From Patescibacteria group bacterium (lineage in GTDB: Bacteria; Patescibacteriota; Minisyncoccia; UBA6257; UBA9933): a stretch of 64,000 bases of DNA. Shown one piece after another: positions 14,653 to 37,297 of the stretch. The position numbers were made by a program, and so were the translations under genes. Numbering within the stretch: position 1 is the first letter of the stretch; every line of letters begins with the position of its first letter. The notes below the pieces were generated by a model that saw only the letters and a list, made by a program, of their open reading frames with translations, ran no database searches and was not told where the DNA came from. Location: assembly GCA_038078555.1 (NCBI GenBank), contig JBBTYQ010000005.1, positions 6,266 to 70,265 on the forward strand. Direction: 5' to 3'.

Positions 14653-15942
14653 ATGGATATAAGAGAATTATTTCAAAACAAAGGAAGATTTTATTTTTTA
14701 TTATTTTCTATTGGTTTTTTGATTTTTTTAACGGCGATTAAAGCATTAGCAGTTGACCAGATCAAATCCACCGAATTTTTTGTTTCTTCTTCCGAATCTC
14801 AAATATCTTCAGCCACTAGCACTGATTTTACTATTTACATCGGCGATAATTTAGCCGGAGTTTCTAATCCCGTAAAATCCGCTTATTTTGAAGTATCCGG
14901 AGTTTATACCGGCAGCGGTTCTTTGGAATTAAAAATCGACAACGACACAGCCACTTCCAAAACTTTTTCGTTGCCCAATGTCGGCGCCACTCCAACTCCA
15001 TATGAGATAATTTACAAAGACGATACCAATAAAATCAATCCATCTTCAGCCGGCTCTTACAATTACACTTTAAATATTATTCCCACCGGAATCACTATTT
15101 CCGGATTAGGCGCGGAGATGAAGTTGACTCACAGATATGTTCCGCCTTCTTGTCCTGATGGCCAGCCGACTAACGAAAAAATCAAATCCACCGAATTTTT
15201 TGTTTCTTCTTCCGAATCTCAAATATCTTCAGCCACTAGCACTGATTTTACTATTTACATCGGCGATAATTTAGCCGGAGTTTCTAATCCCGTAAAATCC
15301 GCTTATTTTGAAGTATCCGGAGTTTATACCGGCAGCGGTTCTTTGGAATTAAAAATCGACAACGACACAGCCACTTCCAAAACTTTTTCGTTGCCCAATG
15401 TCGGCGCCACTCCAACTCCATATGAGATAATTTACAAAGACGATACCAATAAAATCAATCCATCTTCAGCCGGCTCTTACAATTACACTTTAAATATTAT
15501 TCCCACCGGAATCACTATTTCCGGATTAGGCGCGGAGATGAAGTTGACTCACAGATATAAGCCGCCGAATTGCGGCGGTGGTTATCCGGCAACTGGAGAT
15601 TTAATTTCTTTGGTTTTTGATACTGGCATTGAAGGCGCGGCTTATAATTCAGTAATGTTTAAAGGTACAAAGCCAGTCAACACAAAAGTAAGGTTTCAAT
15701 TTGCCACTTCCAATAATTCCGGCGGGCCGTGGAGTTATATCGGCGGCGCGACTTGTGCGGTTGGTGATTGGTATGATGTGCCTAATGTTGATTCTCCGGT
15801 AGAAATCACTTGTGCTCCTTCCAGTCATAATAATCAACGATATTTCAGGTATAAAATTCAGTTATGTTCGGCGTCGGATTGTTCGAGCGGCGGCAGTGAT
15901 ACGCCTAGCGTGACAGATGTAGTTGTTAGTTGGTCTCCGTAA
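14653..15942 (+). CDS. secreted/anchored protein (429 aa) with two identical copies of an uncharacterised domain plus a C-terminal Cys-containing domain
   Basis: N-terminal TM (FYFLLFSIGFLIFLTAIKALA). Residues IKSTEFFVSSSE...MKLTHRY occur twice. The C-terminal region contains RYFRYKIQLCS. Confidence 0.75.
   Translation: MDIRELFQNKGRFYFLLFSIGFLIFLTAIKALAVDQIKSTEFFVSSSESQISSATSTDFTIYIGDNLAGVSNPVKSAYFEVSGVYTGSGSLELKIDNDTATSKTFSLPNVGATPTPYEIIYKDDTNKINPSSAGSYNYTLNIIPTGITISGLGAEMKLTHRYVPPSCPDGQPTNEKIKSTEFFVSSSESQISSATSTDFTIYIGDNLAGVSNPVKSAYFEVSGVYTGSGSLELKIDNDTATSKTFSLPNVGATPTPYEIIYKDDTNKINPSSAGSYNYTLNIIPTGITISGLGAEMKLTHRYKPPNCGGGYPATGDLISLVFDTGIEGAAYNSVMFKGTKPVNTKVRFQFATSNNSGGPWSYIGGATCAVGDWYDVPNVDSPVEITCAPSSHNNQRYFRYKIQLCSASDCSSGGSDTPSVTDVVVSWSP
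14761..15558 (+). repeat. perfect 378-bp direct repeat (14761-15138 and 15181-15558), 420-bp period, in frame
   Basis: Line-by-line comparison shows 378/378 identity. A 42-bp non-repeated linker (15139-15180) separates the copies. Confidence 0.95.
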
Positions 15943-15965
15943 TTAGCTTATTAGCTTGATAGTTT
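15942..15965 (+). promoter_or_regulatory. phased 8-nt AGCT repeat array (3 units), followed directly by an ATG
   Basis: ATTAGCTT ATTAGCTT GATAGTTT, then ATG at 15966. Confidence 0.5.
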
Positions 15966-16018
15966 ATGAAAAATTTTAAAGATTCATTATTAATATCAAA
16001 AATTAAATAAATTGAAAA

Positions 16019-16600
16019 ATGCTTCCTTCTTTTTTATCTAAAATTATGGAATCAAATAAGCTAACGAGCTGTCAAACTAACAAGCAGAATAATGGCTTTA
16101 CTCTCTTAGAGCTTTTAGTTTATGTCGCAATCTTGTCAGTTGTGACTATAATACTTAGCGATATTTTTATTTCTTTCAGTCGCGGCAGGGGACAGTCGGA
16201 AGCTTATTCTGAGGTCAATTCCAATATAATGTTTACTATTGAAAAAATCAGCCAAGATTTAAGGTCCGCCACGTCTTCCGTGGCAATTACTATGCCTATC
16301 AGTACCAGTACGCCAACTAATATTTTGTCTGCTGTTGTCGGTGCCAGTACGATTACCTATGCAACGAGTACCGCTGGTCAACTGTTAAGAACCGTTGGCA
16401 GTGATTCTTATTCCATTACCTCTGACTTGGTTAATGTGGATGCGCTAACCTTCAAGCGCTTGGAAAATATAAATCCGGTTTTTGGCGTGAATATGGCTTT
16501 TACGAGTGTTGAGATAAATATTACGATGAGTTATAAGAGCCAAAGTCCGGATTGGCAATATTCTCAGAGTAAGAAAACCACGATAGGAATCAGGAATTAG
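16019..16600 (+). CDS. type IV pilin-like protein (minor pilin / pseudopilin)
   Basis: Prepilin motif NNG-FTLLELLVYVAILSVV. The true start may be the ATG at 16046 (MESNKLTSCQTNKQNNG leader). Confidence 0.7.
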   Translation: MLPSFLSKIMESNKLTSCQTNKQNNGFTLLELLVYVAILSVVTIILSDIFISFSRGRGQSEAYSEVNSNIMFTIEKISQDLRSATSSVAITMPISTSTPTNILSAVVGASTITYATSTAGQLLRTVGSDSYSITSDLVNVDALTFKRLENINPVFGVNMAFTSVEINITMSYKSQSPDWQYSQSKKTTIGIRN

Positions 16601-16605
16601 GAATT

Positions 16606-16995
16606 ATGAATAATGAATCAAATAAAATTAAATCTTTTGTCGATTTAGATGTCTGGAAGGAGGGGCATAAAATGGTTCTAGATATTTATGAAATTACTAA
16701 ACATTTTCCCAGAGAAGAGCAATTTGGATTAATTATCCAATTACAAAGAGCAGCCGTTTCTTTTACATCAAACATAGCGGAGGGATTCAGTAGAAACTCT
16801 TATAAAGAAAAAGTACAATTTTATTCGATAGCTTTAGGTTCGCTTACCGAAATACAAAATCAATTATTAATAGCAAAAGATATCGGTTATATTACATGCG
16901 AAAATTTTGATAATCTTTTTGACCAGACAGTAAAAGTTAGCAGAATCGCCAATGGTCTTATTAAAAAATCTAAATTCATAATTCAAAATTCATGA
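16606..16995 (+). CDS. four-helix-bundle protein (23S rRNA intervening-sequence protein family)
   Basis: Family signature: DLDVWKEGHKMVLDIYEITKHFPREEQFGLIIQLQRAAVSFTSNIAEGFSR...EKVQFYSIALGSLTEIQNQLLIA. Confidence 0.85.
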   Translation: MNNESNKIKSFVDLDVWKEGHKMVLDIYEITKHFPREEQFGLIIQLQRAAVSFTSNIAEGFSRNSYKEKVQFYSIALGSLTEIQNQLLIAKDIGYITCENFDNLFDQTVKVSRIANGLIKKSKFIIQNS

Positions 16996-17432
16996 TTCAT
17001 AATTCTCAAAAAGGAGCCGCCACTTTACCAACTATTATCGCTTTAACCATTTTAATTCTCGCGGTAGGCATCGGCATTACCGCTGTCAGTTTTACCGAAA
17101 GTTTTATTTCCGCAGGTCAAAACCAATCAACCAGAGCTTTATTTTACGCTGAAGCCGGAGCGCGCGATGCTTTGATGCGGATTGCGCGCAATAAAAATTA
17201 TTATTGTACCAGCCCCTCAGCCGGCTGTTATCAGATAGATTTTGTTTCTAGCGGATGTTCAACAAATGAAGGCTGTGCTAAAATAACAGTGAGTGATGCA
17301 AGTTCGCCAAAAGTAATTATTTCCGAAGGCCGAGTGAATAGTAATATCAGAAAAGTTCAGGCTGATGTTTATTTTGACGCCGCGTTTAACGGAGAAATAA
17401 ATAACATTCAGTGGCAAGAACTGACGAATTAA
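16992..17432 (+). CDS. PilX-like pilus minor component
   Basis: ATGA overlap with the previous stop. Hydrophobic N-terminus (GAATLPTIIALTILILAVGIGITAV) followed by ALFYAEAGARDAL, the same pattern as ORF 42938. Confidence 0.55.
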   Translation: MIHNSQKGAATLPTIIALTILILAVGIGITAVSFTESFISAGQNQSTRALFYAEAGARDALMRIARNKNYYCTSPSAGCYQIDFVSSGCSTNEGCAKITVSDASSPKVIISEGRVNSNIRKVQADVYFDAAFNGEINNIQWQELTN

Positions 17433-17505
17433 TTCAAATGAATTTTTAATTTATCGATTAATAGCCGAGAAACCAGCGAGCTATTAAATTATTAAATAAT
17501 AAACG

Positions 17506-19107
17506 ATGAAATTTGACATATTAAAACTTTTTACGCGGGACGAACCGATTGCGGGAGTGGAAATAAACGATGATTTTATTCGGCTGGCGCTTTTAGATAT
17601 TAAGAGTAATGAGTCAGACAAGAAGCTAGGCAAGAAACTTGAAAAACCAGAAAAAAATATTCAAGTTATAGAAATCAAGGCGCTTGGCGAAAAATCCTTA
17701 AAAGAAGGCGTTATTATAAACGGCGAATTAAAAGATAAAGCGTCGTTTGTGGGCGCATTAAATAATTTATTAGGAGAAATCAAGCCAAGGATAAGATACG
17801 CTATAATTTCTTTGCCGTCCAATAATGTTTATTCCCGCATCTATTCTTTTCCTAAAACCGTAAGCAGTGAAAAAATAGAAGATGCGATGAAATTATCCAT
17901 TGGTTTTCAATTGCCCAATAAAACGGAAGATATTTATCTTGATTGGGAAAAAGGGGAAAGTCAGAAAAATATATTTAACGGAGAAAAAATAGCCGATCAA
18001 ATAGATAATAATATCAGCGAAAAAAAAGAAATCTTTTTGGCGTCAATTTCTAAAGCGCAAGTCAATAATTACTTGGAAGTTTTTAATTTATCCGGTCTTA
18101 ATGCGGTTGCTGTTGAATTTCATCCAATGAGCATTTTAAGAGCTATTGACGCACCCAGCGGCAAAAATATCGCATTTTTGGTTTTTAAGAAGGATGGCGC
18201 AGAAATTGTTATTGCCGAAAATAAAATAATCAAGTTTAGTCGATTTTTGCCGTTGAATTTTTTGAAGGAAAAAAGCATATTTATTGAGGAAATCAGGAAA
18301 ATTATTGATTTTTATGAATCAGAAAATTCGGTTGAGATATCTGATATTAGAATTGTCGGCGATGATAAGGGTTCAATGAATTCAAGCCAGTTGTCAAAGC
18401 CGATTTTGCCTGCAAAAATTATCAAGTCTATTTTAAATCTGGAGAGCATTAAATCTTCCGGTAAAATAACCGTTATAAAAGAAGAAAACAATCAATGGTT
18501 GGCATCTTTAGGAGCGGCTTTGCGGGGCATTTTACCAAGACCGGAAGATGAATTGATTAGCTTGATGCCTATTGGTACGGAAGAAGCTTATGAAAATCAG
18601 AAAGCTATTGTTTTTTCAGAATTTATTGCCAATTTAACCATTGGCCTTTCCGTGTTTTTCGTTGTTGTTTTTGTCGGCGCGTGGATTTTAATGCTGTCTT
18701 TTCAGAAAAATTTCGAGCAGCGGCTCAACATTTTGAATTCTTTGCCTTTGCCGGCAGAAGCCGCTAATTTAGAAGAGCGGGCAAAAAATTTTAACGAACA
18801 AGCGGAAAAATCAAGCATTATTTTATCAACTATTCCGAATTGGAGCTCTGTTTTGGAAGAATTAAAAGCGAGAACAGTATCGGGCATACTAATAAATAAT
18901 TTATCTATAGCCGCGCCGGTTGATGCGATAAATTTAAAAGGAGTCGCTCAAAATCGCGACCAGTTGAATTTATTTAAGAAAACGCTTGAAGGTTCGGCTA
19001 TTTTCATTGATATAAAATTACCCCTAACAAATTTAGAGGCCAAAGAGAATGTGCCATTTTCTCTATCATTTCGTTTAAAAGATCCGAATATTATTTATGC
19101 CCAGTAA
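17506..19107 (+). CDS. PilM-like actin-fold protein fused to a PilN-like membrane segment
   Basis: N-terminus IAGVEINDDFIRLALLD resembles the PilM start. Internal TM (LTIGLSVFFVVVFVGAWILMLSF) is followed by a periplasmic tail. Position is upstream of the pilO-like gene. Confidence 0.6.
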   Translation: MKFDILKLFTRDEPIAGVEINDDFIRLALLDIKSNESDKKLGKKLEKPEKNIQVIEIKALGEKSLKEGVIINGELKDKASFVGALNNLLGEIKPRIRYAIISLPSNNVYSRIYSFPKTVSSEKIEDAMKLSIGFQLPNKTEDIYLDWEKGESQKNIFNGEKIADQIDNNISEKKEIFLASISKAQVNNYLEVFNLSGLNAVAVEFHPMSILRAIDAPSGKNIAFLVFKKDGAEIVIAENKIIKFSRFLPLNFLKEKSIFIEEIRKIIDFYESENSVEISDIRIVGDDKGSMNSSQLSKPILPAKIIKSILNLESIKSSGKITVIKEENNQWLASLGAALRGILPRPEDELISLMPIGTEEAYENQKAIVFSEFIANLTIGLSVFFVVVFVGAWILMLSFQKNFEQRLNILNSLPLPAEAANLEERAKNFNEQAEKSSIILSTIPNWSSVLEELKARTVSGILINNLSIAAPVDAINLKGVAQNRDQLNLFKKTLEGSAIFIDIKLPLTNLEAKENVPFSLSFRLKDPNIIYAQ

Positions 19108-19618
19108 AAATAAAGTTTTTACGATAATTTTTAAGAATTTTTTAAAAGCCGTTGCGGCAATTATTATTGCAATTATTGCGCTTTTATTTTTCAGCCGGCA
19201 AATTGTAAAAATTAGCGAGTCGTTGGCAGAACAACGGGCTTCGGCTTTTATTTTGGAGAAAAAAAATGATGTAATAACTCAGCTTAGCGAAGATTTTAAT
19301 CTTATTGGAGACGCGGATAAAAAAATAGAAAACGCTTTTCCGCCCGCAGAGAATATTTTGGGATTTGTTGCGGCCCTGGAAACTCTCTCAAACCAAACTT
19401 CATTAAATCAGGTTTTGAGTTTTGGCACGCCGGTTGTTTCAAGTATTGATTATAATATCAAGCTTAGCGGAAATATTTCTAATCTGATAAGTTATTTGAA
19501 GCGTTTTGAAAAGCTCCCGTATTTTACGGAAATTTCATCGATAAATTTAAGCGCTTCAAGCGGAAATTGGGAAAACGATTCGTTGATTTCTTTAGAAGCT
19601 AAAATTCATACAAAATGA
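19097..19618 (+). CDS. PilO-like bitopic membrane protein
   Basis: Single N-terminal TM (AVAAIIIAIIALLFF). Overlaps the pilMN stop. The assignment is positional only. Confidence 0.4.
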   Translation: MPSKNKVFTIIFKNFLKAVAAIIIAIIALLFFSRQIVKISESLAEQRASAFILEKKNDVITQLSEDFNLIGDADKKIENAFPPAENILGFVAALETLSNQTSLNQVLSFGTPVVSSIDYNIKLSGNISNLISYLKRFEKLPYFTEISSINLSASSGNWENDSLISLEAKIHTK

Positions 19619-20217
19619 CACTGGAAGTAATTTTAAAAAAAATAAAACTGAAAAAGGTTATTTACCCGATCATTACTTTGGGAATTTTATTAATAGTGGC
19701 TATTGTTTTTGCTTATTCGGCAAAATTTTTATCTCATTCCATCAATAAGGCTCTGTTTCTTGACAGCGCATTGGCCGAATCTCTTTTAATAAAACTTGAT
19801 TTGGGTAAATTTAATTTGATAGCCAATAAATTATCCATTGAAATAAACCTTGTAGTTCCTGAAAAGCCTCAAGTAGAAGAAGCGGCAATCCCCTTAGAAG
19901 AATCAAAAAAAGACGACATTGAATCAGCTCAATTAGACAAAACTGCGGTAAAAATTGCGATTTTAAATAGCACTAAAACAAAAGGCCTAGCCGCTGACCT
20001 TGAAAATTTTTTGATAACTGCCGGTTTTCTAATTGAGCATACGGGAAATACTTCTCCGCTTGAAGCATCAACGGTTATTAAGATAAAAGAAAGTAAAAAT
20101 AATTACAAAACTCTTATAAGAGAAGCCGTCTCTCAAAAATATCAGTTAGCCGAGGACCAAATACTTCAAGAAAGCGAGGAAAATGATATTATTATAATAA
20201 TCGGTTCACCCCGTTAG
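19615..20217 (+). CDS. membrane-anchored LytR_C (LytR/CpsA/Psr C-terminal) domain protein
   Basis: N-terminal TM. C-terminal VKIAILNSTKTKGLAADLENFLITAGF...STVIKIK pattern typical of LytR_C. Confidence 0.55.
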   Translation: MTLEVILKKIKLKKVIYPIITLGILLIVAIVFAYSAKFLSHSINKALFLDSALAESLLIKLDLGKFNLIANKLSIEINLVVPEKPQVEEAAIPLEESKKDDIESAQLDKTAVKIAILNSTKTKGLAADLENFLITAGFLIEHTGNTSPLEASTVIKIKESKNNYKTLIREAVSQKYQLAEDQILQESEENDIIIIIGSPR

Positions 20218-20221
20218 AGAA
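20208..20221. repeat. left arm of a 14-bp perfect inverted repeat bracketing the GIY-YIG ORF
   Basis: ACCCCGTTAGAGAA. Its reverse complement TTCTCTAACGGGGT is at 20474-20487. Confidence 0.9.
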
Positions 20222-20228
20222 TAGTTCA

Positions 20229-20489
20229 ATGATATACACTTACGTCATAAAAAGTAAAAAAGACAGGAAATGGTACACCGGTTCTACTAATGATTTACGG
20301 AAACGCTTTAAGCAGCACAGTAATAACGAAATATCGTCTACAAAGGGACGAGGGCCCTTTATGCTTATTTATTATGAGGCCTGTGTTAATGATCATGACG
20401 CAAGGGTGAGAGAAAAATATTTGAAAACAGGAATGGGTAAAAGATATTTAAAGAATCGCTTAAAGCGTTTCTTTTCTCTAACGGGGTAA
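20229..20489 (+). CDS. stand-alone GIY-YIG nuclease-domain protein (86 aa)
   Basis: IYTYVI...KWYTGSTNDLRKRFKQH...REKYLK, i.e. GIY-(x10)-YTG, conserved Arg and Glu. Confidence 0.85.
   Translation: MIYTYVIKSKKDRKWYTGSTNDLRKRFKQHSNNEISSTKGRGPFMLIYYEACVNDHDARVREKYLKTGMGKRYLKNRLKRFFSLTG
20474..20487. repeat. right arm of the 14-bp inverted repeat
   Basis: TTCTCTAACGGGGT. Overlaps the last codons of the GIY-YIG ORF. Confidence 0.9.
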
Positions 20490-20501
20490 ATAAGATTTTT
20501 T

Positions 20502-21917: not shown

Positions 21918-21944
21918 CCGCTTATCACTTATAATTAAATTAAT

Positions 21945-25045: not shown

Positions 25046-25054
25046 TGATATAAT
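25046..25054 (+). promoter_or_regulatory. extended -10 promoter element TGATATAAT upstream of pilB-1
   Basis: TG-n-TATAAT at 25046-25054. No good -35. In an AT-rich context, so only moderate confidence. Confidence 0.4.
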
Positions 25055-25063: not shown

Positions 25064-25127
25064 AAAAGCTTGCTAACTAATTAGCTAAACAACAAAACCG
25101 CTAAAAAGCCAAAGAGCTTTAATATGC
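25064..25127 (+). promoter_or_regulatory. phased 8-nt AGCT repeat array in the pilB-1 leader
   Basis: AAAAGCTT GCTAACTA ATTAGCTA AACAACAA AACCGCTA AAAAGCCA AAGAGCTT TAATATGC. The ATG is at 25124. Confidence 0.6.
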
Positions 25128-26839
25128 ACATTGTAGAGGAAAAATTAAAATCAATTTTTAAAAAATCAGGGCTTGTTGACGATAAAGTTTTTGAATCCGC
25201 TAAAGAAGAATCTTTAAGGTCGTCGCAGACTATTGCTGATGTATTAATTGGACGCGGAACAATTCCCGAGGATTATATGGTTGAACTTTTACAGCCTTAT
25301 TTTGGCGCAAAAATAGTTGATTTGAAAAAAATAATTATTCCGCCGGAAATTTTGGAATTAGTGCCGGAATCTTATGCTAAATCAAAAAAAGTAATTATTT
25401 TTGAGATTGATAAGGAAAATAATATTGTCAAAGCGGCCATGATTGACCCCTTGGATTACGACGTTCTAGAATTTTTAAGAGCTAAGCTGGACGCTTGGGT
25501 AGAACCGCATTTAACAACTCAAAGCAGTTTAAAATACGGGCTTAAGCAATATAAGAAAAAAATAAATTTGGAATTTAATAAAATAATTGCGGAAAATATT
25601 GAAAAAACTCTTTCGGTCGTGGGTGAACCGGATTTGAATAAAATGGCCGAAGCGGTTCCGATTATCACTATTTTAGACAGCATAATTGAGCAGGCAGTTA
25701 TTTTGGGGGCTTCCGATATTCATTTTGAGCCGTTAGCCAAAGAAGTTTTGATAAGATACCGGGTTGACGGAGTGATGCAGGAGATTTTAAGTTTGCCTAA
25801 AATAATTGCGCCGATTTTAGTTGCTCGGGTAAAAGTTTTAGCCAGCCTTTTAATTGACGAACATCGTTTGCCTCAAGATGGCCGCTTTAAATTCGAGCTT
25901 GAAGATATAAGCATTGATATCCGCGTCAATATAATGCCGGTTTTTCACGGAGAAAAAGTTGAAATGCGTATTTTAAAAAGTTCAGCTCGGCCGATTGGCT
26001 TGGAAGAGCTTGGCCTTTCAAAAAAAGCCGTTGATTTAATTTATGGGGAAATCAAGAAAACCCACGGCATGATTTTAGTAACTGGTCCGACTGGCCACGG
26101 AAAAACCACAACCCTTTATTCAATTTTACAAATTTTAAATACTTCAAAAGTAAATATTACTACCATTGAAGACCCGATTGAGTACGAAATTTCGCGCATT
26201 AATCAAACTCAAGTAAATACTAAAGCTGGTATTACTTTTGCCAATGGTTTGCGGTCGCTTTTAAGGCAGAATCCCGACATAATTATGATTGGCGAAATTC
26301 GCGATAATGAAACCGTTGATATTGCAGTGCATTCGGCCTTAACCGGCCATTTGGTGCTTTCCTCGCTTCATACCAACGACGCCGCCAGCGCTTTGCCGAG
26401 ATTATTAGATATGGGCGCGCCGGCTTTTCTTCTTTCCTCGACTGTTAATATGATTGTGGCTCAGAGATTGGTGAGAAAAATTTGCAGTTTTTGCATTGAA
26501 TCTTATCCAATCACTCCGGAAATAAAAAGGCTGATTATGGCCCAATTATCGGCTGTTCCGGAAACGCCGATTAAAGCAAAAAATCTTCCAACAAGATTAT
26601 TCCGGGGCAAGGGATGTAAGATTTGCAATAATTCCGGCTTTCATGGGCAAATCGGCGTATTTGAAGTTTTAAGAGTTACGGATAGTATCCGGGAATTGTT
26701 GCTGAAGTTGGTGCCGGTTGGAGAAATAAGAAAACGCGCTATTAAAGAAGGTATGACGACTTTATTTGAAGATGGCTTGGATAAGGTCGAAAGAGGAACA
26801 ACGACGATTGAAGAAGTGTTAAGAGTAATCAGAGAATAG
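25124..26839 (+). CDS. pilB: type IV pilus assembly ATPase PilB (GspE family), copy 1
   Basis: Walker A GPTGHGKTT; Walker B/Asp box DIIMIGEIRD; His box GHLVLSSLHTND; tetracysteine CSFC...CKIC; N-terminal T2SSE_N-like region. Confidence 0.9.
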   Translation: MHIVEEKLKSIFKKSGLVDDKVFESAKEESLRSSQTIADVLIGRGTIPEDYMVELLQPYFGAKIVDLKKIIIPPEILELVPESYAKSKKVIIFEIDKENNIVKAAMIDPLDYDVLEFLRAKLDAWVEPHLTTQSSLKYGLKQYKKKINLEFNKIIAENIEKTLSVVGEPDLNKMAEAVPIITILDSIIEQAVILGASDIHFEPLAKEVLIRYRVDGVMQEILSLPKIIAPILVARVKVLASLLIDEHRLPQDGRFKFELEDISIDIRVNIMPVFHGEKVEMRILKSSARPIGLEELGLSKKAVDLIYGEIKKTHGMILVTGPTGHGKTTTLYSILQILNTSKVNITTIEDPIEYEISRINQTQVNTKAGITFANGLRSLLRQNPDIIMIGEIRDNETVDIAVHSALTGHLVLSSLHTNDAASALPRLLDMGAPAFLLSSTVNMIVAQRLVRKICSFCIESYPITPEIKRLIMAQLSAVPETPIKAKNLPTRLFRGKGCKICNNSGFHGQIGVFEVLRVTDSIRELLLKLVPVGEIRKRAIKEGMTTLFEDGLDKVERGTTTIEEVLRVIRE

Positions 26840-26841
26840 TT

Positions 26842-26921
26842 TTTAGCTTTCTAGCTCCTTAGTTATAAAAGTTATAAACTAACGAGCTGATAAGCTATCA
26901 AGCTAACTGGCTTATATTATG
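26842..26921 (+). promoter_or_regulatory. phased 8-nt AGCT repeat array filling the pilB-1/pilC-1 intercistronic gap (10 units)
   Basis: TTTAGCTT TCTAGCTC CTTAGTTA TAAAAGTT ATAAACTA ACGAGCTG ATAAGCTA TCAAGCTA ACTGGCTT ATATTATG. Confidence 0.7.
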
Positions 26922-29733: not shown

Positions 29734-29772
29734 CTGTGATTTTTGGAATTTCCAGTATTTGTTCTTTATTTT

Positions 29773-29891: not shown

Positions 29892-32057
29892 ATGATAAAG
29901 CTTGTTGACCAGTTAAGCGTGATTAAAGGCGTTGGCCCAAGCTTCATTGCCAAGTTAAGGAAATTAAATATCGAAACAGTTAAAGATTTACTTTGGCATT
30001 TTCCCAGCCGATATGATGATTTTTCCCAAATTGTGAAAATTGCCGATTTAAAAATCAATCAACGGGCAACTGTTTCCGGCTTAATCCAGCAAGTAAAGAT
30101 GCATCGCACCTGGCGCCGAAAAATGTTCATTATAGAGGCCTTGATAACCGACGACTCTGGCAGTATTAAGGCAATTTGGTTTAATCAGAGATTTTTGATT
30201 TCTATTTTAAAAAAGGGGAGATTGGTTAATTTGGCGGGAAAAGTTGTTGAAGCCCAAGGCGGCGGACTGTGCTTGTCTCATCCGACGCATGAATTAATAA
30301 ACGAGCAATCATCAATAAACGACGAGCAACAAGCGACCAAGCACACCGGGCGCCTTGTTCCGGTTTATCCCGAGACAAAAAAATTAACTTCAAAAGCATT
30401 TAGATACTTAATCAAGCCGGCTCTTGATAATTTAGAGAATTTGCCTGAAATCTTGCCGATGCCAGTTTTAGATCAAAATAATTTTCCGGAAATTAATATC
30501 GCGATAAAACAAATTCATTTTCCCGATGAGCAGAAAGACGCCAAAGCGGCTAAAAAAAGATTTGCATTTGAAGACCTTTTTTTGCTTCAACTGGCAAATT
30601 TAGCTGCGCGTTCGGCTTTATCCCGGCAAAGATCATATTCCTTTGAAGAAAATCTTGATTTTATAAAAAATATTTTATCAAAGCTTCCGTTTGAGCTTAC
30701 TTATTCCCAAAAAAAATCCTTATGGGAAATTTTAAATGACCTAAGTAAAAACAGCCCAATGAATCGCTTGCTTCAGGGTGATGTCGGTTCCGGAAAAACT
30801 ATAGTGGCGGCAATTGCCGCTTTAGTCGCGGCAAAAAACGGCCGTCAGGCGGCTTTTATGGCGCCGACTGAAGTTTTAGCGCGCCAGCATTATTCGACAT
30901 TTAAAAAGTTTTTTTCCGATTTTTCATCTGGCGCCGGCCTGCTTACTTCCGGCGAGGCTAAAATTTTTTATGGTGAAAACCTCGAAAGCAATTTAAAGAA
31001 ACCGGAATTAATTAAAAAAATTGAACAAAGCGAAATAAAGATAGTTTTTGGAACACATGCGCTGATTCAGAAAAGCGTGCGCTTCAGTGAATTGGCTTTG
31101 GTTATTATTGATGAACAGCACAGATTCGGCGTTAAGCAAAGAGCGGAACTTTTAAAAGAGAAAGAAATAGCTCCTCATTTTTTGAGTATGTCTGCCACGC
31201 CGATTCCCAGAACTCTGACTTTGACGATTTTTGGCGATCTTGATTTAAGCATTATCAGCGAACTGCCAAAAAATCGAAAGCCGATTATTACCAAAATTGT
31301 TGCTCCGGAAAATCGGGATAAAGCCTATGCTTTTATAAGAGGCCAGGTGAAGCATGGCCGACAGGTTTTTGTGGTATGTCCAAGAATTGAACCAACGATA
31401 AATAGCGTGCAAGCAACAGATATATTGGTTGAACCGATGACTGTGGATTATAAGTCAGCAGTTAATTTTGAAGTGAAAGCAGTCAAAGAAGAATATGAAA
31501 AACTTTCCACAAAAACATTTCCTGATTTAAGAGTGGGAATATTGCATGGCAAAATGAAAACCAAGGAAAAAAATGAAATTATGCAGAATTTTAAAGATGG
31601 GAAAATAGATATTTTGGTTTCCACCTCGGTTATTGAAGTTGGCGTTGATGTTCCCAATGCCGCAATTATGATGATTGAAGGTGCGGAAAAATTCGGACTA
31701 GCCCAGCTTTATCAATTTCGCGGCCGTGTTGGCCGGGGCGAGTATCAGTCATTTTGTTTTTTGTTTACGGATTCAAGTTCTAAAGCCACTTATAAAAGAT
31801 TATTTTCTATTGTTGAAGCAAAAAACGGTTTCGAGCTTGCCGAGAAAGATTTAGAAATCAGAGGGCCGGGCGAATTTTTAGGCCAATCGCAAACCGGTTA
31901 TCCTGATTTGGCGATGAAAGCGGTGCAAAATCCCGATTTGGTAAAATCCAGCCGCGAAACTGCCAAGGAAATATTGAAAAACGATTTTGAGCTTAAATCA
32001 TACCCATTTTTAAGAATAAGATTGGAAGAATTTAAGGCGAAAATACATTTGGAATAA
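29892..32057 (+). CDS. recG: ATP-dependent DNA helicase RecG
   Basis: Walker A GDVGSGKT, DEQH box (IIDEQHRFG), SATPIPRT, QLYQFRGRVGRG, and an N-terminal wedge/OB region. ATG at 29892 is preferred over the TTG at 29832. Confidence 0.9.
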   Translation: MIKLVDQLSVIKGVGPSFIAKLRKLNIETVKDLLWHFPSRYDDFSQIVKIADLKINQRATVSGLIQQVKMHRTWRRKMFIIEALITDDSGSIKAIWFNQRFLISILKKGRLVNLAGKVVEAQGGGLCLSHPTHELINEQSSINDEQQATKHTGRLVPVYPETKKLTSKAFRYLIKPALDNLENLPEILPMPVLDQNNFPEINIAIKQIHFPDEQKDAKAAKKRFAFEDLFLLQLANLAARSALSRQRSYSFEENLDFIKNILSKLPFELTYSQKKSLWEILNDLSKNSPMNRLLQGDVGSGKTIVAAIAALVAAKNGRQAAFMAPTEVLARQHYSTFKKFFSDFSSGAGLLTSGEAKIFYGENLESNLKKPELIKKIEQSEIKIVFGTHALIQKSVRFSELALVIIDEQHRFGVKQRAELLKEKEIAPHFLSMSATPIPRTLTLTIFGDLDLSIISELPKNRKPIITKIVAPENRDKAYAFIRGQVKHGRQVFVVCPRIEPTINSVQATDILVEPMTVDYKSAVNFEVKAVKEEYEKLSTKTFPDLRVGILHGKMKTKEKNEIMQNFKDGKIDILVSTSVIEVGVDVPNAAIMMIEGAEKFGLAQLYQFRGRVGRGEYQSFCFLFTDSSSKATYKRLFSIVEAKNGFELAEKDLEIRGPGEFLGQSQTGYPDLAMKAVQNPDLVKSSRETAKEILKNDFELKSYPFLRIRLEEFKAKIHLE

Positions 32058-32113
32058 AAAATAAGAGACGAATAATAATGAAATTATCGATTTCTAAAAT
32101 TTTGATTCAATGA

Positions 32114-32836
32114 TTACGCTCTGGCTATGACTAATGCGATTACTCTTCTAACTCCATTTTCTTTTAGGATTTTAACAGCTTCATCAATAGTGGCGCCGGA
32201 AGTATATACATCGTCAATTAAAAGAATATTTTTGCCTTTAAGAGAAGTATTATTTCTGATTTTAAAGCAATTTTTAATATTTTCTACGCGCGATTCTTCG
32301 CCCTTAAGTATTGCTTGAGGTTGAGCGTCTTTTATTCTTTCCAGCGCAGACGCCAATTCTAAATTAAGATTAACTGATATAAATTCAGCGAGAAGTTTTG
32401 ACTGATTGAATCCCCTCATCTTTTCGCGGCTTTTGTAAAGGGGGATTGGCATAACCGAAAAATTTTTAAAATTTAAATTTGCCGCGCCTATATAATTTAA
32501 TAGTAATTTTCCTAAAACAGGAGCAAGTTCCTGGAAATTTTTATATTTGAAATAATGGATTAAATTTCTAAGGATTTGGTCGTCGTAATTTCCAGCGGCC
32601 GCTAATAAATATAAATACGGCTGATTTTTTCTTCGGTGGCTGCAGATTCTTTTATTTTCCGCAAGGCGATTGCGGCAAACCGGGCAATATAGCGTGTTGT
32701 TGATTTTTATTAAATCAAAGCAATCATCGCAAATAAGCTCGTTGCTATTTTCAATATTTTTACGGCAAGCAATGCAGATTCTTGGAAAAACAATATTTAA
32801 CGCTAAGTTTTTTATTTTGATTAAAATTGGAAGCAT
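32114..32836 (-). CDS. comF: ComF family protein (ComFC-like, zinc ribbon + phosphoribosyltransferase fold)
   Basis: N-terminal Cys pairs CIACRK...CDDC...CPVCRN. PRTase motif ILLIDDVYTSGATI. Confidence 0.85.
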   Translation of the reverse strand: MLPILIKIKNLALNIVFPRICIACRKNIENSNELICDDCFDLIKINNTLYCPVCRNRLAENKRICSHRRKNQPYLYLLAAAGNYDDQILRNLIHYFKYKNFQELAPVLGKLLLNYIGAANLNFKNFSVMPIPLYKSREKMRGFNQSKLLAEFISVNLNLELASALERIKDAQPQAILKGEESRVENIKNCFKIRNNTSLKGKNILLIDDVYTSGATIDEAVKILKENGVRRVIALVIARA

Positions 32837-32875
32837 GCTATAATTTAATTATAAAAAATAATTGTAAAAATTAAT

Positions 32876-33940
32876 ATGCTTAGTTTTTTAAAATCATTTT
32901 TCACAGGAAATTCGGTCTTAGGAGTTGATATCGGCACATCTTCTATAAAAATAGCGGAAATTTCGAAATCTTCGGAAAAGCCCAAACTAAAAAATTACGG
33001 AATCCTGGAAGCTCAAAGCCACTTGGAACGTTCTAATAGCGCTTTGCAGACTAATTCCTTAAAATTAGCCGATAAAGAAACCGCTAAGCTTATTAGCGCT
33101 CTTGTAGAAAAATCAAGATTTAAAACTAAAAATGTGGTTGCTTCCATCCCGTCTTTTTCTTCTTTTGTTACGCTTGTGGAAATGCCGAAAATGAGCAATG
33201 AAGAAGTTAATAAAACAATGTCTTATCAGATTCGCCAGTATATTCCTTTGCCTGAATCGGAAGTGGCGATAGATTGGATTAAAGTTGGCGAATCAGAAAG
33301 TGAAGGTATTATTAAACAGCAGATTTTATTGGTATCAATACCCAACGAAGAAATCAGAAGATATCAGAATATATTCAAGCTGGCAGGTTTGAAATTAAAG
33401 TCTTTGGAAATTGAAAGCATGGCTTTATCAAGAGCATTGGTTTTTGGCGACTTAACGCCGACAATTTTGGTTGATATCGGAGCTTATTCTACCAATATCG
33501 CGGTTGTGGAAAATGGATTTTTAAAAAGTAATATTTTTACGGATTTTGCCGGTTCTTCTTTAACTCAGGCGATTGCTAACGGTCTGGGCATTGAGATGAA
33601 GCGGGCCGAGGAATTAAAAAAACAAAAAGGTCTTAAAGCAACCGGCGGCGAATATCAGTTATCCACATTGCCTCAGCCGTTTCTCGATGTTATAATAGGA
33701 GAAGTTGTAAGAATCAGAGAAAATTTTGAAGCCAAAAAAAGTAAAAAAATAGAAAGAGTGCTTTTGGCCGGCGGTGGCGCGAATTTAATCGGTATAGAGG
33801 AATATTTTGAAAAACAAACTGGTTTGCCGTCTGCTTTAGGTAATGCCTTGCTTCGAGTGGACTATCCCAAAGAAACAGAATTATTTTCTAAAGAATTGGG
33901 TGCAGAGCTTGCGGTGGCAATTGGTTTGGCGATTAAGTAG
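32876..33940 (+). CDS. pilM: type IV pilus assembly protein PilM
   Basis: VLGVDIGTSSIKIAEI N-terminus, actin-like fold motifs (ILVDIGAYSTNI, LLAGGGANLIG). 354 aa. Confidence 0.85.
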   Translation: MLSFLKSFFTGNSVLGVDIGTSSIKIAEISKSSEKPKLKNYGILEAQSHLERSNSALQTNSLKLADKETAKLISALVEKSRFKTKNVVASIPSFSSFVTLVEMPKMSNEEVNKTMSYQIRQYIPLPESEVAIDWIKVGESESEGIIKQQILLVSIPNEEIRRYQNIFKLAGLKLKSLEIESMALSRALVFGDLTPTILVDIGAYSTNIAVVENGFLKSNIFTDFAGSSLTQAIANGLGIEMKRAEELKKQKGLKATGGEYQLSTLPQPFLDVIIGEVVRIRENFEAKKSKKIERVLLAGGGANLIGIEEYFEKQTGLPSALGNALLRVDYPKETELFSKELGAELAVAIGLAIK

Positions 33941-33975
33941 TAATTTTAAAAAAGACTGGAAAATAAAATTAAAAA

Positions 33976-34542
33976 ATGCCATATAATCAATCGGTTATTG
34001 AAGAGCAATTAAAAAAAAAGGAAAGCACATCAGCCGGATTGCCGCTTAAGCTTTTTAGTTTAAGTTTAATAATTTTTTTGACCTCAATCTTTATTTATAT
34101 TGGCATAGCCTTCGGTTATCGGCCTTATTTAAATTCAGAAATTAAAAAATTGGAAAGCGAAATTTTCAATTTAACTCAATCGATTGATGAAACAAAACAA
34201 AAACAGATTATCAACTTTTATTACCAGTCATTAAATATAAAAAATCTTTTAAACTCGCGAATTACAATTTCAAGAATTTTCGACCTTATTGAGAAAAATA
34301 CTTATTCTAACGTTAAATACGGCAATTTTTCATTAAACGTAAACAATAAAGAAATAAGAATAGACGGAGTTGCTCCTAATTATGAAACCGTGATAAAGGA
34401 ATTGGCTTTATTTGAAAGCGTTGAAGGAGTGGAAAAAGTTTATTTGGAAAATTTTTCAGCAATAGATTCTTTAAAAACAAAGGGAGTATCTGAGATTAAT
34501 TTTGTTATAAAGTTGGTTTTAAACGAAAAAATTTTAAAATAA
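33976..34542 (+). CDS. PilN-like bitopic membrane protein
   Basis: Single TM (LFSLSLIIFLTSIFIYIGIAFGY), then a coiled segment. Position between pilM and the pilO-like gene. Confidence 0.55.
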   Translation: MPYNQSVIEEQLKKKESTSAGLPLKLFSLSLIIFLTSIFIYIGIAFGYRPYLNSEIKKLESEIFNLTQSIDETKQKQIINFYYQSLNIKNLLNSRITISRIFDLIEKNTYSNVKYGNFSLNVNNKEIRIDGVAPNYETVIKELALFESVEGVEKVYLENFSAIDSLKTKGVSEINFVIKLVLNEKILK

Positions 34543-34544
34543 TT

Positions 34545-35096
34545 ATGAAAGGGTCAGCAAAAAGAACGTTGAGCATTTTCTTGGCCATGTTGTTTCTAAT
34601 CGGCTCATTTTTGGTTTATTTTTACTTTATTAATCCGGTTTATGCTGAAATTAAAATTTTAAGGGGCAAGAATATTTCTTTGAAACAAAATCTTGAGAAT
34701 TCCAAAATTTTAAATGAAAAATTTGAAAAAATTCTTGGTGATTATGAAAATATTAAAGTTCAAGACAAGTTGTCGTTAATGCTGCCTGAAAAATTAAATA
34801 TTTCCTATGCGGTTAGCCAAATAATCGGCATTGCCCGGATTAATAGTTTATCGATTCAATCATTAAATGTTAAAGAACTGGCAATTACGCCCTCGCGGAC
34901 TTCGTCAAAAGGTTTAGGCACCTTAAGAATTGAAGCGAGAATGTCGGGTAATTACGAAAATTTAAAGTTATTTTTTAACAATCTAGAAGAAAATTTAATG
35001 ATTTCCGATCCGCTTGAATTAAAAATAGAAGCCCAAGTAGGTAATCCAAGCATGTCGTATTCATTAGCAATAGATACATATTATCAAGCGGAATAA
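34545..35096 (+). CDS. PilO-like bitopic membrane protein
   Basis: TM (LSIFLAMLFLIGSFLVYFYFI) followed by a coiled coil. Positional. Confidence 0.55.
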   Translation: MKGSAKRTLSIFLAMLFLIGSFLVYFYFINPVYAEIKILRGKNISLKQNLENSKILNEKFEKILGDYENIKVQDKLSLMLPEKLNISYAVSQIIGIARINSLSIQSLNVKELAITPSRTSSKGLGTLRIEARMSGNYENLKLFFNNLEENLMISDPLELKIEAQVGNPSMSYSLAIDTYYQAE

Positions 35097-35136
35097 ATAA
35101 AAAATACTAACCCTTAAAACCTAATACCTAACATAT

Positions 35137-35424
35137 ATGGCGATACTAATAGAAGAAGAAAAAAGAAACATAAATTGGTTTGCAATTTTAATTGTTTTGA
35201 TAATTTTAGGCTTAATTAGCACTGCGGTAATTTATATGTTTTTTATTAGTCCGGAATCAATTGAGGTGCTTGTGCCGGACAATCTTAAAAATATTCAGGA
35301 TTTGAGTGAAACAAAATTTGATCCGGCAGAAATTTTTAAAAATCCTGCTTTTAGCAAATTGAAATTGCAAACACCGCTTGTTGTTCCCGAGCCAGCTTTC
35401 AATCAAAATCCTTTTTTGCAATAA
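35137..35424 (+). CDS. small bitopic membrane protein (95 aa) within pilus locus 2
   Basis: TM WFAILIVLIILGLISTAVIYMFFI. No family recognised. Confidence 0.4.
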   Translation: MAILIEEEKRNINWFAILIVLIILGLISTAVIYMFFISPESIEVLVPDNLKNIQDLSETKFDPAEIFKNPAFSKLKLQTPLVVPEPAFNQNPFLQ

Positions 35425-35467
35425 ATTTATATTTCTTAATAATTGATTGCTGATTATCGTTTAAACT

Positions 35468-37228
35468 ATGGAAAATAGAATACTTCTCCAAGAATTAATT
35501 AAGCAGAATTTGCTTACCGAAGAAACTTCCAAAAAGCTTTTGCAGGAATCTACATTGATGCGTAGAAGCGCGGAAGATTTAATTTTAGACAGAAGATTAA
35601 TTAGCGAAGAAAAATTATTTTCCGTAAAAAGCCAGCTTTTAAATATTCCTTATAAAAAAATAATTGCTGAAGATATTGAAAATTTAAGTGAGGAATTACT
35701 TAAATTAATTCCGGAAGAAACCGTAAGAAACTACAAAGCCTTTCCTTTAGAGCGCAAAGATAATCTTTTGATTATCGGAATGGTTAATCCGGAAGACAAC
35801 AAAGCGCAAGACGCTTTAAAATTTATTGCTCGGCAATTGCGCCTTAACTTGGGAATTTATTTGGTTTCATTGTCTAGTTGGGAAATCGCTCTAAGAAAAT
35901 ATTCTCCTTTTTCCGGTGAAATAGAAACAGCGGTAAGATCTTTAAATATTGATTTGAGCAAGTCATCCTCAACTCAACATATTATTCGGCTCGAGGAAGG
36001 GGCGGCAGCCGCGGAAGAAGCGCCGATAATTAAAATAGTCGCATCTACTTTGAAGGAAGCTGTTTCGGAACAAGCATCGGATATTCACATAGAACCTCAA
36101 CGCGACAAATTAAGGATAAGATTCAGAATTGACGGTGAGCTTCAGGAAGTTTCTTCTTTGCCGTTAGTCCTTCACCAGCCTATTGTTTCAAGAGTTAAAG
36201 TCCTTTCCAATTTAAAAATTGACGAAACAAGAATTCCCCAAGACGGCCGTTTTCGAACCGTTCTTTTTGGCCGTGATATTGATTTTCGTGTGGCAACTTT
36301 TCCTACGCCTGTTGGAGAAAAAGCGGCGATTAGAGTTCTTGATCCGACAATCGGCTTAAAAGGACTGGAGCAATTAGGGTTAATCGGTAAAAATCTTCAA
36401 ATAATAAAAAAAGGTCTGGAGAAACCCTACGGAATGATTTTAATTACCGGTCCGACTGGTTCCGGAAAAACCACAACGCTTTACGCCACAATGCAAATGC
36501 TTAATAAAGAAGACGCAAACATTGTCAGTCTTGAGGACCCGGTTGAATATTTTATAGATGGATTAAATCAGTCTCAAGTTAGGCCGGAGATTGGTTATGA
36601 TTTTGCTTCCGGTCTCCGTCAGATTCTTCGGCAAGACCCCGACGTTATTATGGTCGGAGAAATTCGCGATAACGAAACAGCCGGCTTGGCTATTCACGCG
36701 GCGCTTACCGGCCATATTGTTCTTTCTACTCTTCACACCAATGATGCCATCGGAGTTATTCCGCGATTGATAGACATGAAAGTTGAACCGTTTTTAATTC
36801 CTTCGTCATTAAATTTAATGATTGCTCAAAGATTGATTCCCCGGCTTTGTCAAAAATGTAAAAAACCAGAAAAACCATCTTTGGAAATTCAGTCCATGAT
36901 AAAAAAAGAGCTGGTAAAATTGCCAAAAGATGTTATCGAAGAAGTGAAACAAAAAATCAAAAATATTGACGGTCCTTATGAGATATATCATTCTCCGGGC
37001 TGTTCTGCTTGTAAAAATAAAGGCGTAAGTGGAAGAATTGCATTATTTGAAGTGCTGGAAATGACTCAAACGCTTGAGGAAATTATTAATGCCGGGCCGA
37101 CAGAAATGAAAATTTTAGAAGAATCAAAGCGGCAAGAAATGATTACCTTAAGACAAGATGGAATTTTAAAAGCCCTGGACGGATTAGTCCGCGCAGAGGA
37201 GGTGTTGAGGGAGACCATGGAAGTATGA
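35468..37228 (+). CDS. pilB: type IV pilus assembly ATPase PilB (GspE family), copy 2
   Basis: Walker A GPTGSGKTT; DVIMVGEIRD; GHIVLSTLHTND; tetracysteine CQKC...CSAC. Confidence 0.9.
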   Translation: MENRILLQELIKQNLLTEETSKKLLQESTLMRRSAEDLILDRRLISEEKLFSVKSQLLNIPYKKIIAEDIENLSEELLKLIPEETVRNYKAFPLERKDNLLIIGMVNPEDNKAQDALKFIARQLRLNLGIYLVSLSSWEIALRKYSPFSGEIETAVRSLNIDLSKSSSTQHIIRLEEGAAAAEEAPIIKIVASTLKEAVSEQASDIHIEPQRDKLRIRFRIDGELQEVSSLPLVLHQPIVSRVKVLSNLKIDETRIPQDGRFRTVLFGRDIDFRVATFPTPVGEKAAIRVLDPTIGLKGLEQLGLIGKNLQIIKKGLEKPYGMILITGPTGSGKTTTLYATMQMLNKEDANIVSLEDPVEYFIDGLNQSQVRPEIGYDFASGLRQILRQDPDVIMVGEIRDNETAGLAIHAALTGHIVLSTLHTNDAIGVIPRLIDMKVEPFLIPSSLNLMIAQRLIPRLCQKCKKPEKPSLEIQSMIKKELVKLPKDVIEEVKQKIKNIDGPYEIYHSPGCSACKNKGVSGRIALFEVLEMTQTLEEIINAGPTEMKILEESKRQEMITLRQDGILKALDGLVRAEEVLRETMEV

Positions 37229-37241
37229 TATATTATATTAA

Positions 37242-37297
37242 ATAAGTTATTTAGTTTATTAGCTATTGAGCTAATAAACTATCAGCCAATATTAAAA
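37242..37297 (+). promoter_or_regulatory. phased 8-nt AG(C/T)T repeat array in the pilB-2/pilT intercistronic gap
   Basis: ATAAGTTA TTTAGTTT ATTAGCTA TTGAGCTA ATAAACTA TCAGCCAA TATTAAAA, then ATG at 37297. There is a one-nt phase slip in unit 6. Confidence 0.55.

Follow-up and report, generated by a model that had tools for sequence, protein, structure and literature searches.

AGCT repeat arrays in two type IV pilus loci of a Patescibacteria group bacterium: arms of imperfect palindromes, probably derived from IVP gene cassettes

Do short repeats that recur upstream of functionally related genes mark a common regulatory site, or are they copies of an element that spreads among these genes? 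The question is raised by a 64-kb stretch of DNA (64,000 nucleotides, here called the window; contig JBBTYQ010000005.1 of assembly GCA_038078555.1, positions 6,266 to 70,265) from a Patescibacteria group bacterium, in whose two type IV pilus loci a first-pass annotation had found six arrays of AGCT-containing units, one of them inside a region coding for a pilin leader peptide. Two explanations were offered there, a shared cis-regulon signal coordinating both loci and a small repeat family spreading between pilus genes; the second is supported by the data reported below, the first is not. At every AGCT site two arrays face each other in inverted orientation and make an imperfect palindrome, or hairpin, of 21-31 pairs, a feature missed at first pass. 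The arrays are best regarded, with a probability of roughly 0.6, as the paired arms of elements from a fast-turnover repeat family of 7-8 nt period in Parcubacteria-type bacteria, derived from cassettes that carry a gene for IVP (23S rRNA intervening sequence protein, or S23p; PF05635), and as tolerated insertions, not a dedicated pilus regulator.

All six arrays were found in place, with the units originally described. Two AGCT tetramers spaced 8 nt apart are found 7 times in the window, while 300 dinucleotide-preserving shuffles give a mean of 0.86 and a maximum of 5; at this spacing AGCT is the most enriched of the 256 tetramers, and 6 of the 7 pairs fall within the regions named at first pass. 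A position-weight model built from the arrays and a significance test against AT-rich background had been proposed as checks. When a weight matrix was built without each array in turn and 127,954 positions were ranked, every held-out array was recovered in the window, at ranks from 1st to 47th. Scanned with the full matrix, the window gives eight top matches, all of them at the named sites or in the arms opposite to these, after which the score falls from 14 to 11. The hand count of 23 identities in 28 positions was confirmed exactly for 16058-16085 against 26876-26903; elsewhere in the window identity stays below 21/28, and none of 100 block-shuffled windows reaches 23 (maximum 21). The three-way match between 20-mers from three of the arrays holds as well, with 16, 14 and 16 pairwise identities and 13 positions common to all three. 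The similarity thus survives the shuffle tests. A G+C content of 36% and some individually unconvincing members (the array at 17460, the fold at 25064) could be taken as signs of a chance or compositional artefact of AT-rich intergenic DNA; the shuffles, the ranks of held-out arrays, the match at 23 of 28 positions and the presence of homologous arrays in a second genome leave this explanation a negligible probability.

The palindromic sites of the window are the following.

15937-15967, + strand: 5' arm of a gene-deleted IVP cassette, units ATTAGCTT ATTAGCTT GATAGTTT, beginning at the stop codon of open reading frame (ORF) 14653-15942
16056-16095, + strand: 3' arm of the gene-deleted cassette, units ATAAGCTA ACGAGCTG TCAAACTA ACAAGCAG, translated as the prepilin leader NKLTSCQTNKQ
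17443-17503, + strand: hairpin before pilM/N, including weak AGCT-like units at 17460-17483; 23 pairs, 18 Watson-Crick; fold z=-1.95
25064-25120, + strand: pilB1 leader hairpin, between the extended -10-like box TGATATAAT (25046-25054) and the ATG at 25124
26837-26905, + strand: hairpin filling the junction between pilB1 stop and pilC1 start; 26837-26867 pairs with 26873-26905; 31 pairs, 25 Watson-Crick
37238-37295, + strand: hairpin filling the junction between pilB2 stop and pilT start, with a perfect 13-bp core at 37252-37281

The copies at 15942 and 16056 belong to a single stem, of which they form the arms and which encloses 88 nt; in it 15937-15967 pairs with 16064-16095 (31 pairs, 22 Watson-Crick and 4 G-T); the stem is found in both minimum free energy (MFE) and centroid folds. 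The hairpin between pilB1 and pilC1 has a folding energy of -24.4 kcal/mol (z=-3.1), none of 200 shuffles being equally stable. That between pilB2 and pilT reaches -16.2 kcal/mol (z=-2.9), its extended stem of 26 pairs (21 Watson-Crick) ending 1 nt 5' of the ATG. The arms of the pilB1 leader hairpin, 25065-25085 and 25100-25120, form 21 pairs, 14 of them Watson-Crick, in a weak fold (z=-0.9), and the pilM/N hairpin is the weakest member of the set (leave-one-out rank 47). No intrinsic terminator was predicted at any array, the stems being A+T-rich and devoid of a T-run or T-tail. Copies vary in length (30-160 nt) and unit number, and no target-site duplication is visible at their boundaries, which sets them apart from miniature inverted-repeat transposable elements and from repetitive extragenic palindromic (REP) sequences. 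A generic inverted-repeat search returned mostly A+T-rich noise.

The origin of these palindromes is suggested by a cassette located between two of them, and by remnants of a similar cassette within the stem at 15937-16095.

16584-17008, + strand: intact IVP cassette, formed by a heptamer 5' arm (GGAATNN)n at 16584-16623, the IVP ORF 16606-16995 and a heptamer 3' arm (ATTCNNN)n at 16968-17008
15966-16010, + strand: 14-codon mini-ORF (MKNFKDSLLISKIK, followed by a stop codon), what is left of an IVP gene at its 5' end
16006-16048, + strand: what is left of the IVP gene at its 3' end, where the TTATG stop/start overlap now supplies the ATG at 16046 of the pilin-like gene

ORF 16606-16995 matches the Pfam family 23S_rRNA_IVP (PF05635, E=1.4e-36). 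The arrays at its sides, detected at period 7 by Tandem Repeats Finder, are made up of units other than AGCT and have opposite orientations; they form 40 pairs, 30 of them Watson-Crick, the stem being present in both MFE and centroid folds. At the 3' end of the cassette an ATGA overlap starts the next gene, ORF 16992-17432.

Cassettes with AGCT arms exist in a sister species. Among 80 related pilB loci the AGCT unit occurs only in Wolfebacteria RIFCSPLOWO2_01_FULL_38_11, known from two assemblies of the one species (L005 and L207) and having a PilB 77% identical to that of the window. Its arrays are found between kinase and receiver genes, between pilB and pilC, between pilC and a pilin gene, and on both sides of an IVP gene. 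In L207 this gene (967-1314) is bracketed by inverted AGCT-type arrays, a 5' arm (GATAGCTTGTTAGYTG)n at 868-950 and a 3' arm (CTATCAAR)n at 1322-1372, the latter lying within the N-terminal coding region of the following gene.

Both ends of the L207 IVP gene are recognizable in the loop of the window stem. Its first 38 nt align to 15966-16003 with a score of 20 (mean 10.4 and maximum 18 in 300 shuffles), its last 44 nt, including TTATGA, to 16006-16048 with a score of 22 (shuffle mean 7.8, maximum 13). When the arms are added, the scores become 30 and 35 (shuffle maxima 20 and 15), the 5' arm and loop start aligning to L207 944-1003 (30). The N-terminus of the L207 protein, to be compared with the mini-ORF, is MKDFKNLLIWQKS. 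Because the loop aligns to both IVP gene ends, the mini-ORF is interpreted as the stump of an IVP gene, and 15942-16095 as an AGCT-armed cassette from which the gene has been deleted. The 3' arm of this cassette is the one that matches the pilB1-pilC1 3' arm at 23 of 28 positions, which ties gene-less hairpins to IVP cassettes; the elements at 25064, 26837, 37238 and 17443 have no gene in the loop, and are connected to the IVP family by arm similarity only.

Intact cassettes reside at the same junction, between the pilin-like gene and ORF146/160, in the window and in L207. The flanking genes are 66% and 73% identical in the two species, the IVP genes (16606-16995 and L207 967-1314) only 36%, and the arm units are GGAAT in one, AGCT in the other. 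Given this low identity the two IVP genes derive from different insertions, and comparison of the sequences indicates cassette replacement at one site.

As noticed at first pass, the copy at 16056-16095 lies in the leader-coding part of the pilin-like ORF starting at 16046 (MESNKLTSCQTNKQNNG/FTLLELL, the slash marking the end of the leader). The N_methyl motif corresponds to residues 22-46 of the ORF when this is started at 16019. The ATG and the 3' arm of the decayed cassette are now, according to the predicted translation, the start codon and the leader of this gene, and the presence of an array inside a pilin leader is explained by their recruitment as gene start. The L207 ortholog is 66% identical over the mature part and has an unrelated leader of 15 aa (MPTRYSLNSKFFSKG/FSLLEL). 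The gene that follows the intact cassettes behaves similarly: ORF 16992 of the window starts MIHNSQKG/AATLPT, from the ATTC arm, its L207 counterpart (ORF 1311) starts MKIIRLSNYQTIKLLNYQAIKG/IASLPT, from the AGCT arm, and the remaining protein is 73% identical. Tolerance of cleavable prepilin leaders to array insertion is a plausible reason why IVP cassettes would persist beside pilin genes. A homolog of the pilin-like gene in locus L064 (~9351-9440, minus strand) features (GTCAGAT)5 in the leader-coding region, and heptamers of opposite orientation (ACAACTG/ACATCTG) are found just 3' of this homolog.

The hairpins are insertions. Orthologous junctions measure 4-14 nt in three relatives showing 76% identity (L208-L210), and 5-23 nt in L207. 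The pilB-pilC junction is 4 nt long in L209 and L210 and hairpin-filled in the window; the ORF160-pilM junction is 5 nt long in L207, and accommodates the hairpin 17443-17503 in the window. In L207 the TGATATAAT box ends 9 nt 5' of the pilB ATG, whereas in the window the same box is followed by a 60-nt array, so that the pilB1 leader array is an insertion. Extended -10 boxes of the TGATATAAT type were noted at 25046-25054 and 37226-37234 of the window, at 9986-9994 of L207 and in several pilB loci, and in most relatives end 8-12 nt 5' of the pilB ATG; their recurrence so close to the start codon suggests that leaderless or very-short-leader mRNAs are in use in the lineage.

The number of units is unstable. 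Over 9.7 kb L005 and L207 share 99.65% identity, and the only indels between them (+16 and +8 nt, three 8-nt units in all) are both located in the AGCT array at the kinase-receiver junction (L005 1228-1252, L207 7207-7291). Changes of this type might turn the arrays into contingency loci, in which slippage alters unit number and thereby switches or tunes pilus gene expression; heptamer number is strain-variable in Coxiella as well, and surface structures are classic targets of phase variation (PMC4679880). Yet window arrays are degenerate and include no two long perfect runs, which lowers slippage, and across those of locus 1 two assemblies obtained from separate sequencing runs do not differ from the window. 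The array that varies, between a kinase and a receiver gene, is neither at a promoter nor within a reading frame, and the copies in a ribosomal operon (see below) make a switching role unlikely. Phase variation is accordingly regarded as a poor candidate, the least probable of the functional roles considered. A search for strain-level relatives of PilB1, whose orthologous hairpins might have revealed compensatory changes, yielded none between 79% and 100% identity.

Gene assignments made earlier for the two pilus loci match the Pfam analysis.

Locus 1 (Pfam): pilin-like gene 16046-16600, IVP gene, PilM/N fusion, HAMP/kinase/receiver set, pilin, PilB1 25124-26839, PilC1, further pilin
Locus 2 (Pfam): PilM, PilN, PilB2, PilT 37297-38367, PilC2, pilins, prepilin peptidase 40247-41134

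Enrichment of the arrays next to type IV pilus genes had also been proposed as a check. On the contig (window plus 16 kb of extensions, in which no further AGCT arrays were found) AGCT arrays are present in 5 of 9 pilus-locus spacers and in none of 25 others (Fisher p=0.00045); in the 21.7 kb of L207 the corresponding figures are 4 of 9 and 0 of 8 (p=0.053). Within the 15.9-37.3 kb span, the contrast between pilus and non-pilus spacers is not significant (p=0.12), and a cassette resident in the region, spreading locally, would account for the distribution equally well. The statement that comparable arrays are lacking in non-pilus intergenic regions of the window is correct for AGCT units and wrong for others: a (CAATTTA)4.7 heptamer array (6324-6356) fills the spacer before the non-pilus gene 6365-7351 (precomputed Beta-lactamase2 match).

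A pilus cis-regulon, in which a DNA- or RNA-binding factor would read AGCT units and coordinate the two loci, agrees with the restriction of the arrays to pilus loci over ~80 kb of contig and 21.7 kb of the sister genome, with the conservation of one unit in two species that share 77% identity in PilB, and with an AGCT hairpin before pilB in L179, syntenic with locus 2. The junction occupied by this last hairpin, on the other hand, has no array in the window. The arrays keep no fixed place with respect to promoters and start codons, some following a -10-like box (25064, 37238), others being intercistronic (26837) or located in coding sequence (16056); the number of units ranges from 3 to 10, and orientation varies. 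Just one of the five array junctions of the window, that between pilB and pilC, is common to the sister species, and no AGCT array was detected in the other 79 of the 80 pilB loci, nor in L208-L210. The pilus loci encode no DNA-binding regulator, the response regulator being receiver-only. The same architecture, moreover, is found outside pilus operons in other organisms. In L157, five junctions of the S8-L6-L18-S5-L15-SecY-Adk-Map operon hold AGCT hairpins of the form (AGCTTNTT)3-4, loop, (AGCTAANA)3-6, all of which stop 1-6 nt 5' of an ATG; similar arrays precede a receiver gene, ftsA, atpG, scpB and IVP genes elsewhere. A common regulatory signal is therefore considered unlikely. What speaks for a spreading repeat family is the combination of common unit types, the 23/28 stretch, partly different junctions in the sister species, the gene-deleted IVP cassette and differences in unit number.

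Further details of L157 are worth recording. A periodic hairpin resides at almost every junction of its ribosomal-protein operon (989-7213), those not made up by AGCT using TACGAAT or AATATTC units, and at 6943-7213 a second palindromic element is nested within an AGCT array. The absence of L30 and a G+C content of 51%, the latter judged against a range read from genome names, are both consistent with a Parcubacteria-group bacterium such as Kaiserbacteria.

Arrays end 0-14 nt 5' of start codons in the window, L005, L157, L179, L132, L133 and L202, their start-proximal arm is always A-rich, and none of the array-preceded genes has a Shine-Dalgarno sequence. The A-rich AGCUAA-type units might hence act in translation initiation, as standby or enhancer sites or as targets of a post-transcriptional regulator, a role proposed for TAACTGA heptamers in Beggiatoaceae (PMC4679880). 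Lack of a Shine-Dalgarno sequence is not special, however, clear ones being found in only about 11 of the 64 window genes; orthologs in relatives manage without an array, arrays are located also 3' of IVP genes and within coding sequence, and folding shows no sense-strand bias. A translational element seems as improbable as a cis-regulon, and the notion that arrays substitute for a missing Shine-Dalgarno sequence was dropped, as most window genes lack one. Many genes of the window have a TATAAT box 6-12 nt 5' of the ATG. A consensus promoter scan was uninformative in this A+T-rich DNA, with counts of 43 against 39.5 in shuffles for a first region and 25 against 16.0, a modest excess only, for a second.

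IVP cassettes and gene-less periodic hairpins are found in related bacteria too. The closest PilB proteins are those of Wolfebacteria, Terrybacteria and other Parcubacteria-group genomes. Inverted short-period arrays bracket the IVP gene of the window and 7 of 10 IVP genes in the 80 related pilB loci, with a complementarity higher than in any of 30 shuffles. Arm units vary from element to element (GAACACA, TTGACAN, ACAACTG, GAATATN). Several of these IVP cassettes are located exactly between pilB and pilC, and at the same junctions other species have gene-less periodic hairpins made up by other units. In a survey of 207 same-strand junctions, 26 are periodic at a lag of 6-10, 18 of these 26 are also hairpins, and the units are genome-specific. 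No copy in the window is inside an rRNA gene; all are placed between protein-coding genes or at their ends.

Metagenomes of the Joint Genome Institute were also scanned for five AGCT units at 8-nt spacing. Matches were mostly unrelated perfect microsatellites from varied organisms, and the scan became informative only once filtered for arrays adjoining start codons. IVP genes are carried by 7 of 120 metagenome loci, which had been picked for the AGCT spacing only. AGCT-type arrays directly flank the IVP ORF in L198, L146, L110 and L130, short-period arrays of other units precede it in L112 and L156, and the association of IVP genes with periodic arrays reaches organisms of 39-54% G+C. In L149 an IVP-like ORF, extended to the first in-frame ATG, starts immediately downstream of a stretch similar to the 16S rRNA 5' end (GAGAGTTTGATCCTAGCTCAGGATG); this could be a case of IVP insertion into a 16S rRNA gene, of the type reported for these bacteria (PMC11270868).

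The observations are probably accounted for as follows. The full-length form of the element would consist of inverted arrays bracketing an IVP gene, and the pilus-locus copies would be miniature gene-less derivatives, of which 15942-16095 retains both ends of the deleted gene. Elements are located at stop-to-start junctions, or in intervals between a -10 box and a start codon; where a cassette abuts a prepilin-type gene, the ATG(A) overlap and the 3' arm become its start codon and cleavable leader. Copies may have spread locally from a cassette resident in a pilus locus, which would account for their confinement there. The elements would be transcribed with the operons, and their stems of 21-31 pairs may be cut by RNase III, by analogy with rRNA intervening sequences. 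Cutting would separate cistrons, or trim the leader and leave a 5' end a few nt before the start codon, an outcome that would suit a genome with few Shine-Dalgarno sequences and many leaderless-looking genes.

Several observations weigh against this interpretation. Three arrays of the sister species are largely direct, not inverted, so the hairpin is not universal, and the pilB1 and pilM/N hairpins of the window are weak (z=-0.9 and -1.95). In two genomes AGCT arrays are confined to pilus loci (p=0.00045 in one, 0.053 in the other), which would agree with a pilus-related role as well. Neither a transposase nor a target-site duplication was identified for the elements. G-T mismatches, expected to exceed A-C ones if pairing were selected at the RNA level, number 11 against 14 in the arms of the window and 36 against 34 in those of other cassettes, and selection on RNA pairing was thus not detected; of 18 periodic hairpins, only 7 are more stable in the sense than in the antisense strand (p=0.70). 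As pairing bears no signature of selection, a function of the hairpins at the RNA level is unproven, and the elements are probably tolerated or selfish insertions with side effects on mRNA rather than a dedicated regulator. A broader proposal is more tentative, and rather less probable than its negation: IVP (S23p) cassettes may constitute a mobile family whose terminal inverted arrays of 7-8 nt units would allow them to reside between genes without harm, as 'intervening sequences of mRNAs' removed by RNase III, and which decay to gene-less junction hairpins across Parcubacteria and donate start codons and cleavable leaders to prepilin genes.

How do these elements compare with known systems? 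REP sequences and bacterial interspersed mosaic elements (BIMEs) of enterobacteria and the Correia elements of Neisseria are dispersed, hairpin-forming intergenic elements found inside operons, as are those described here, and are transcribed, as the latter would be; Correia elements are reported to be RNase III targets that alter mRNA stability. REP/BIME and Correia elements have a defined length, sequence and termini, with a TA target duplication in the case of Correia; they are not known to feature an internal periodicity of 7-8 nt or an associated IVP gene, unlike the elements analyzed here. As in the operator arrays or upstream activating sequences of pilus regulons, a short motif is repeated upstream of several pilus genes. 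Unlike such sites, the arrays lack a fixed distance to the promoter, conservation among orthologs and a cognate DNA-binding regulator in the loci, and are found in unrelated operons. The arrays are more broadly akin to long simple-sequence repeats with units of 5-11 nt.

One of the two nearest described systems is that of the intervening sequences (IVSs) of rRNA genes. Those with an S23p/IVP ORF, known in Coxiella and Leptospira, are excised by RNase III and are regarded as selfish or neutral; the Coxiella IVS has a stem formed by 28-bp terminal inverted repeats, which RNase III cuts, and strain-variable tandem heptamers before the ORF (PMC4990558). In the window and its relatives, too, the IVP gene resides in the loop of a terminal-inverted-repeat stem; the arms are made of short tandem repeats, here of period 7-8, variable in copy number (three units between L005 and L207); and the stem is, as in IVS-type cassettes, of at least ~20 bp (21-31 pairs at AGCT sites, 40 at the intact cassette). 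Unlike rRNA intervening sequences, these elements lie between protein-coding genes and not in 23S or 16S rRNA, their arms are long periodic arrays, with 8-nt AGCT units in this clade, most copies are gene-less, and the 3' arm may be translated as the leader of the next gene.

TAACTGA heptamers, the other such system, are intergenic direct repeats of marine Beggiatoaceae, cyanobacteria and Bacteroidetes (MacGregor 2015, PMC4679880). Like the arrays reported here, they are short-period arrays located a few nt 5' of start codons in genomes where Shine-Dalgarno sequences are rare, they occur in ribosomal-protein operons with no functional bias of the genes downstream, and some overlap ORF ends (PMC4679880). 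They differ in being direct repeats of a single heptamer, with one inverted case among 170 sets and no reported link to IVP (PMC4679880), whereas the elements of Parcubacteria are inverted array pairs with genome-specific units. A study of rRNA insertions in these bacteria noted IVP ORFs only within rRNA genes (PMC11270868), and in the literature searched no description was found of IVP cassettes, or of periodic or gene-less hairpins, at protein-gene junctions in these bacteria.

Other features of the region may be mentioned. The window is one part of a 113-kb contig of the Hainich groundwater metagenome, which is also present in an NCBI MAG. Genes of the window are nearly all on the + strand, and two tRNAs are the only Rfam matches at gathering thresholds. 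ORF 14653-15942 (429 aa, no Pfam match), directly upstream of the first AGCT arm, includes a perfect 420-bp tandem duplication (14761-15558; 1.9 copies, 100% identity), either a very recent duplication or an assembly artefact. In pilus locus 1, a 14-bp inverted repeat (ACCCCGTTAGAGAA at 20208-20221, TTCTCTAACGGGGT at 20474-20487) brackets an 86-aa GIY-YIG gene (ORF 20229-20489), overlapping the stop codon of the upstream gene and that of the GIY-YIG gene itself; the gene is thus placed within a hairpin loop, the layout seen in IVP cassettes. Upstream of the window, at the contig start (L205 240-3056), a pair of neighbouring N6_N4_Mtase genes precedes a 414-aa ORF with no Pfam match, possibly a restriction-modification system. 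The idea that AGCT, a palindrome, forms clusters of sites for these two N4/N6 methyltransferases was set aside, as sister lineages use non-palindromic units.

A motif that recurs upstream of functionally related genes need not be a regulatory site, a caution for annotation, and the reading of a repeat arm as a prepilin leader implies that elements of this type are able to redefine where genes begin. Should the stems undergo processing, the elements would shape the cutting and translation of polycistronic pilus and ribosomal-protein messages, in organisms with few Shine-Dalgarno sequences. The IVS concept would in that case extend, should the broader proposal hold, from rRNA to operons, and the long-unexplained S23p family would acquire a genomic context. 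In a recent survey no phylum exceeds the parcubacterial Campbellbacteria and Kaiserbacteria in inverted-repeat density (PMC13155455). For the tiny genomes of the candidate phyla radiation, in which inverted repeats are densest and so far without explanation (PMC13155455), cassettes and their gene-less remnants offer a concrete origin for part of the signal, and decay of IVP cassettes to gene-less hairpins would, on the broader proposal, explain the record density of these phyla.

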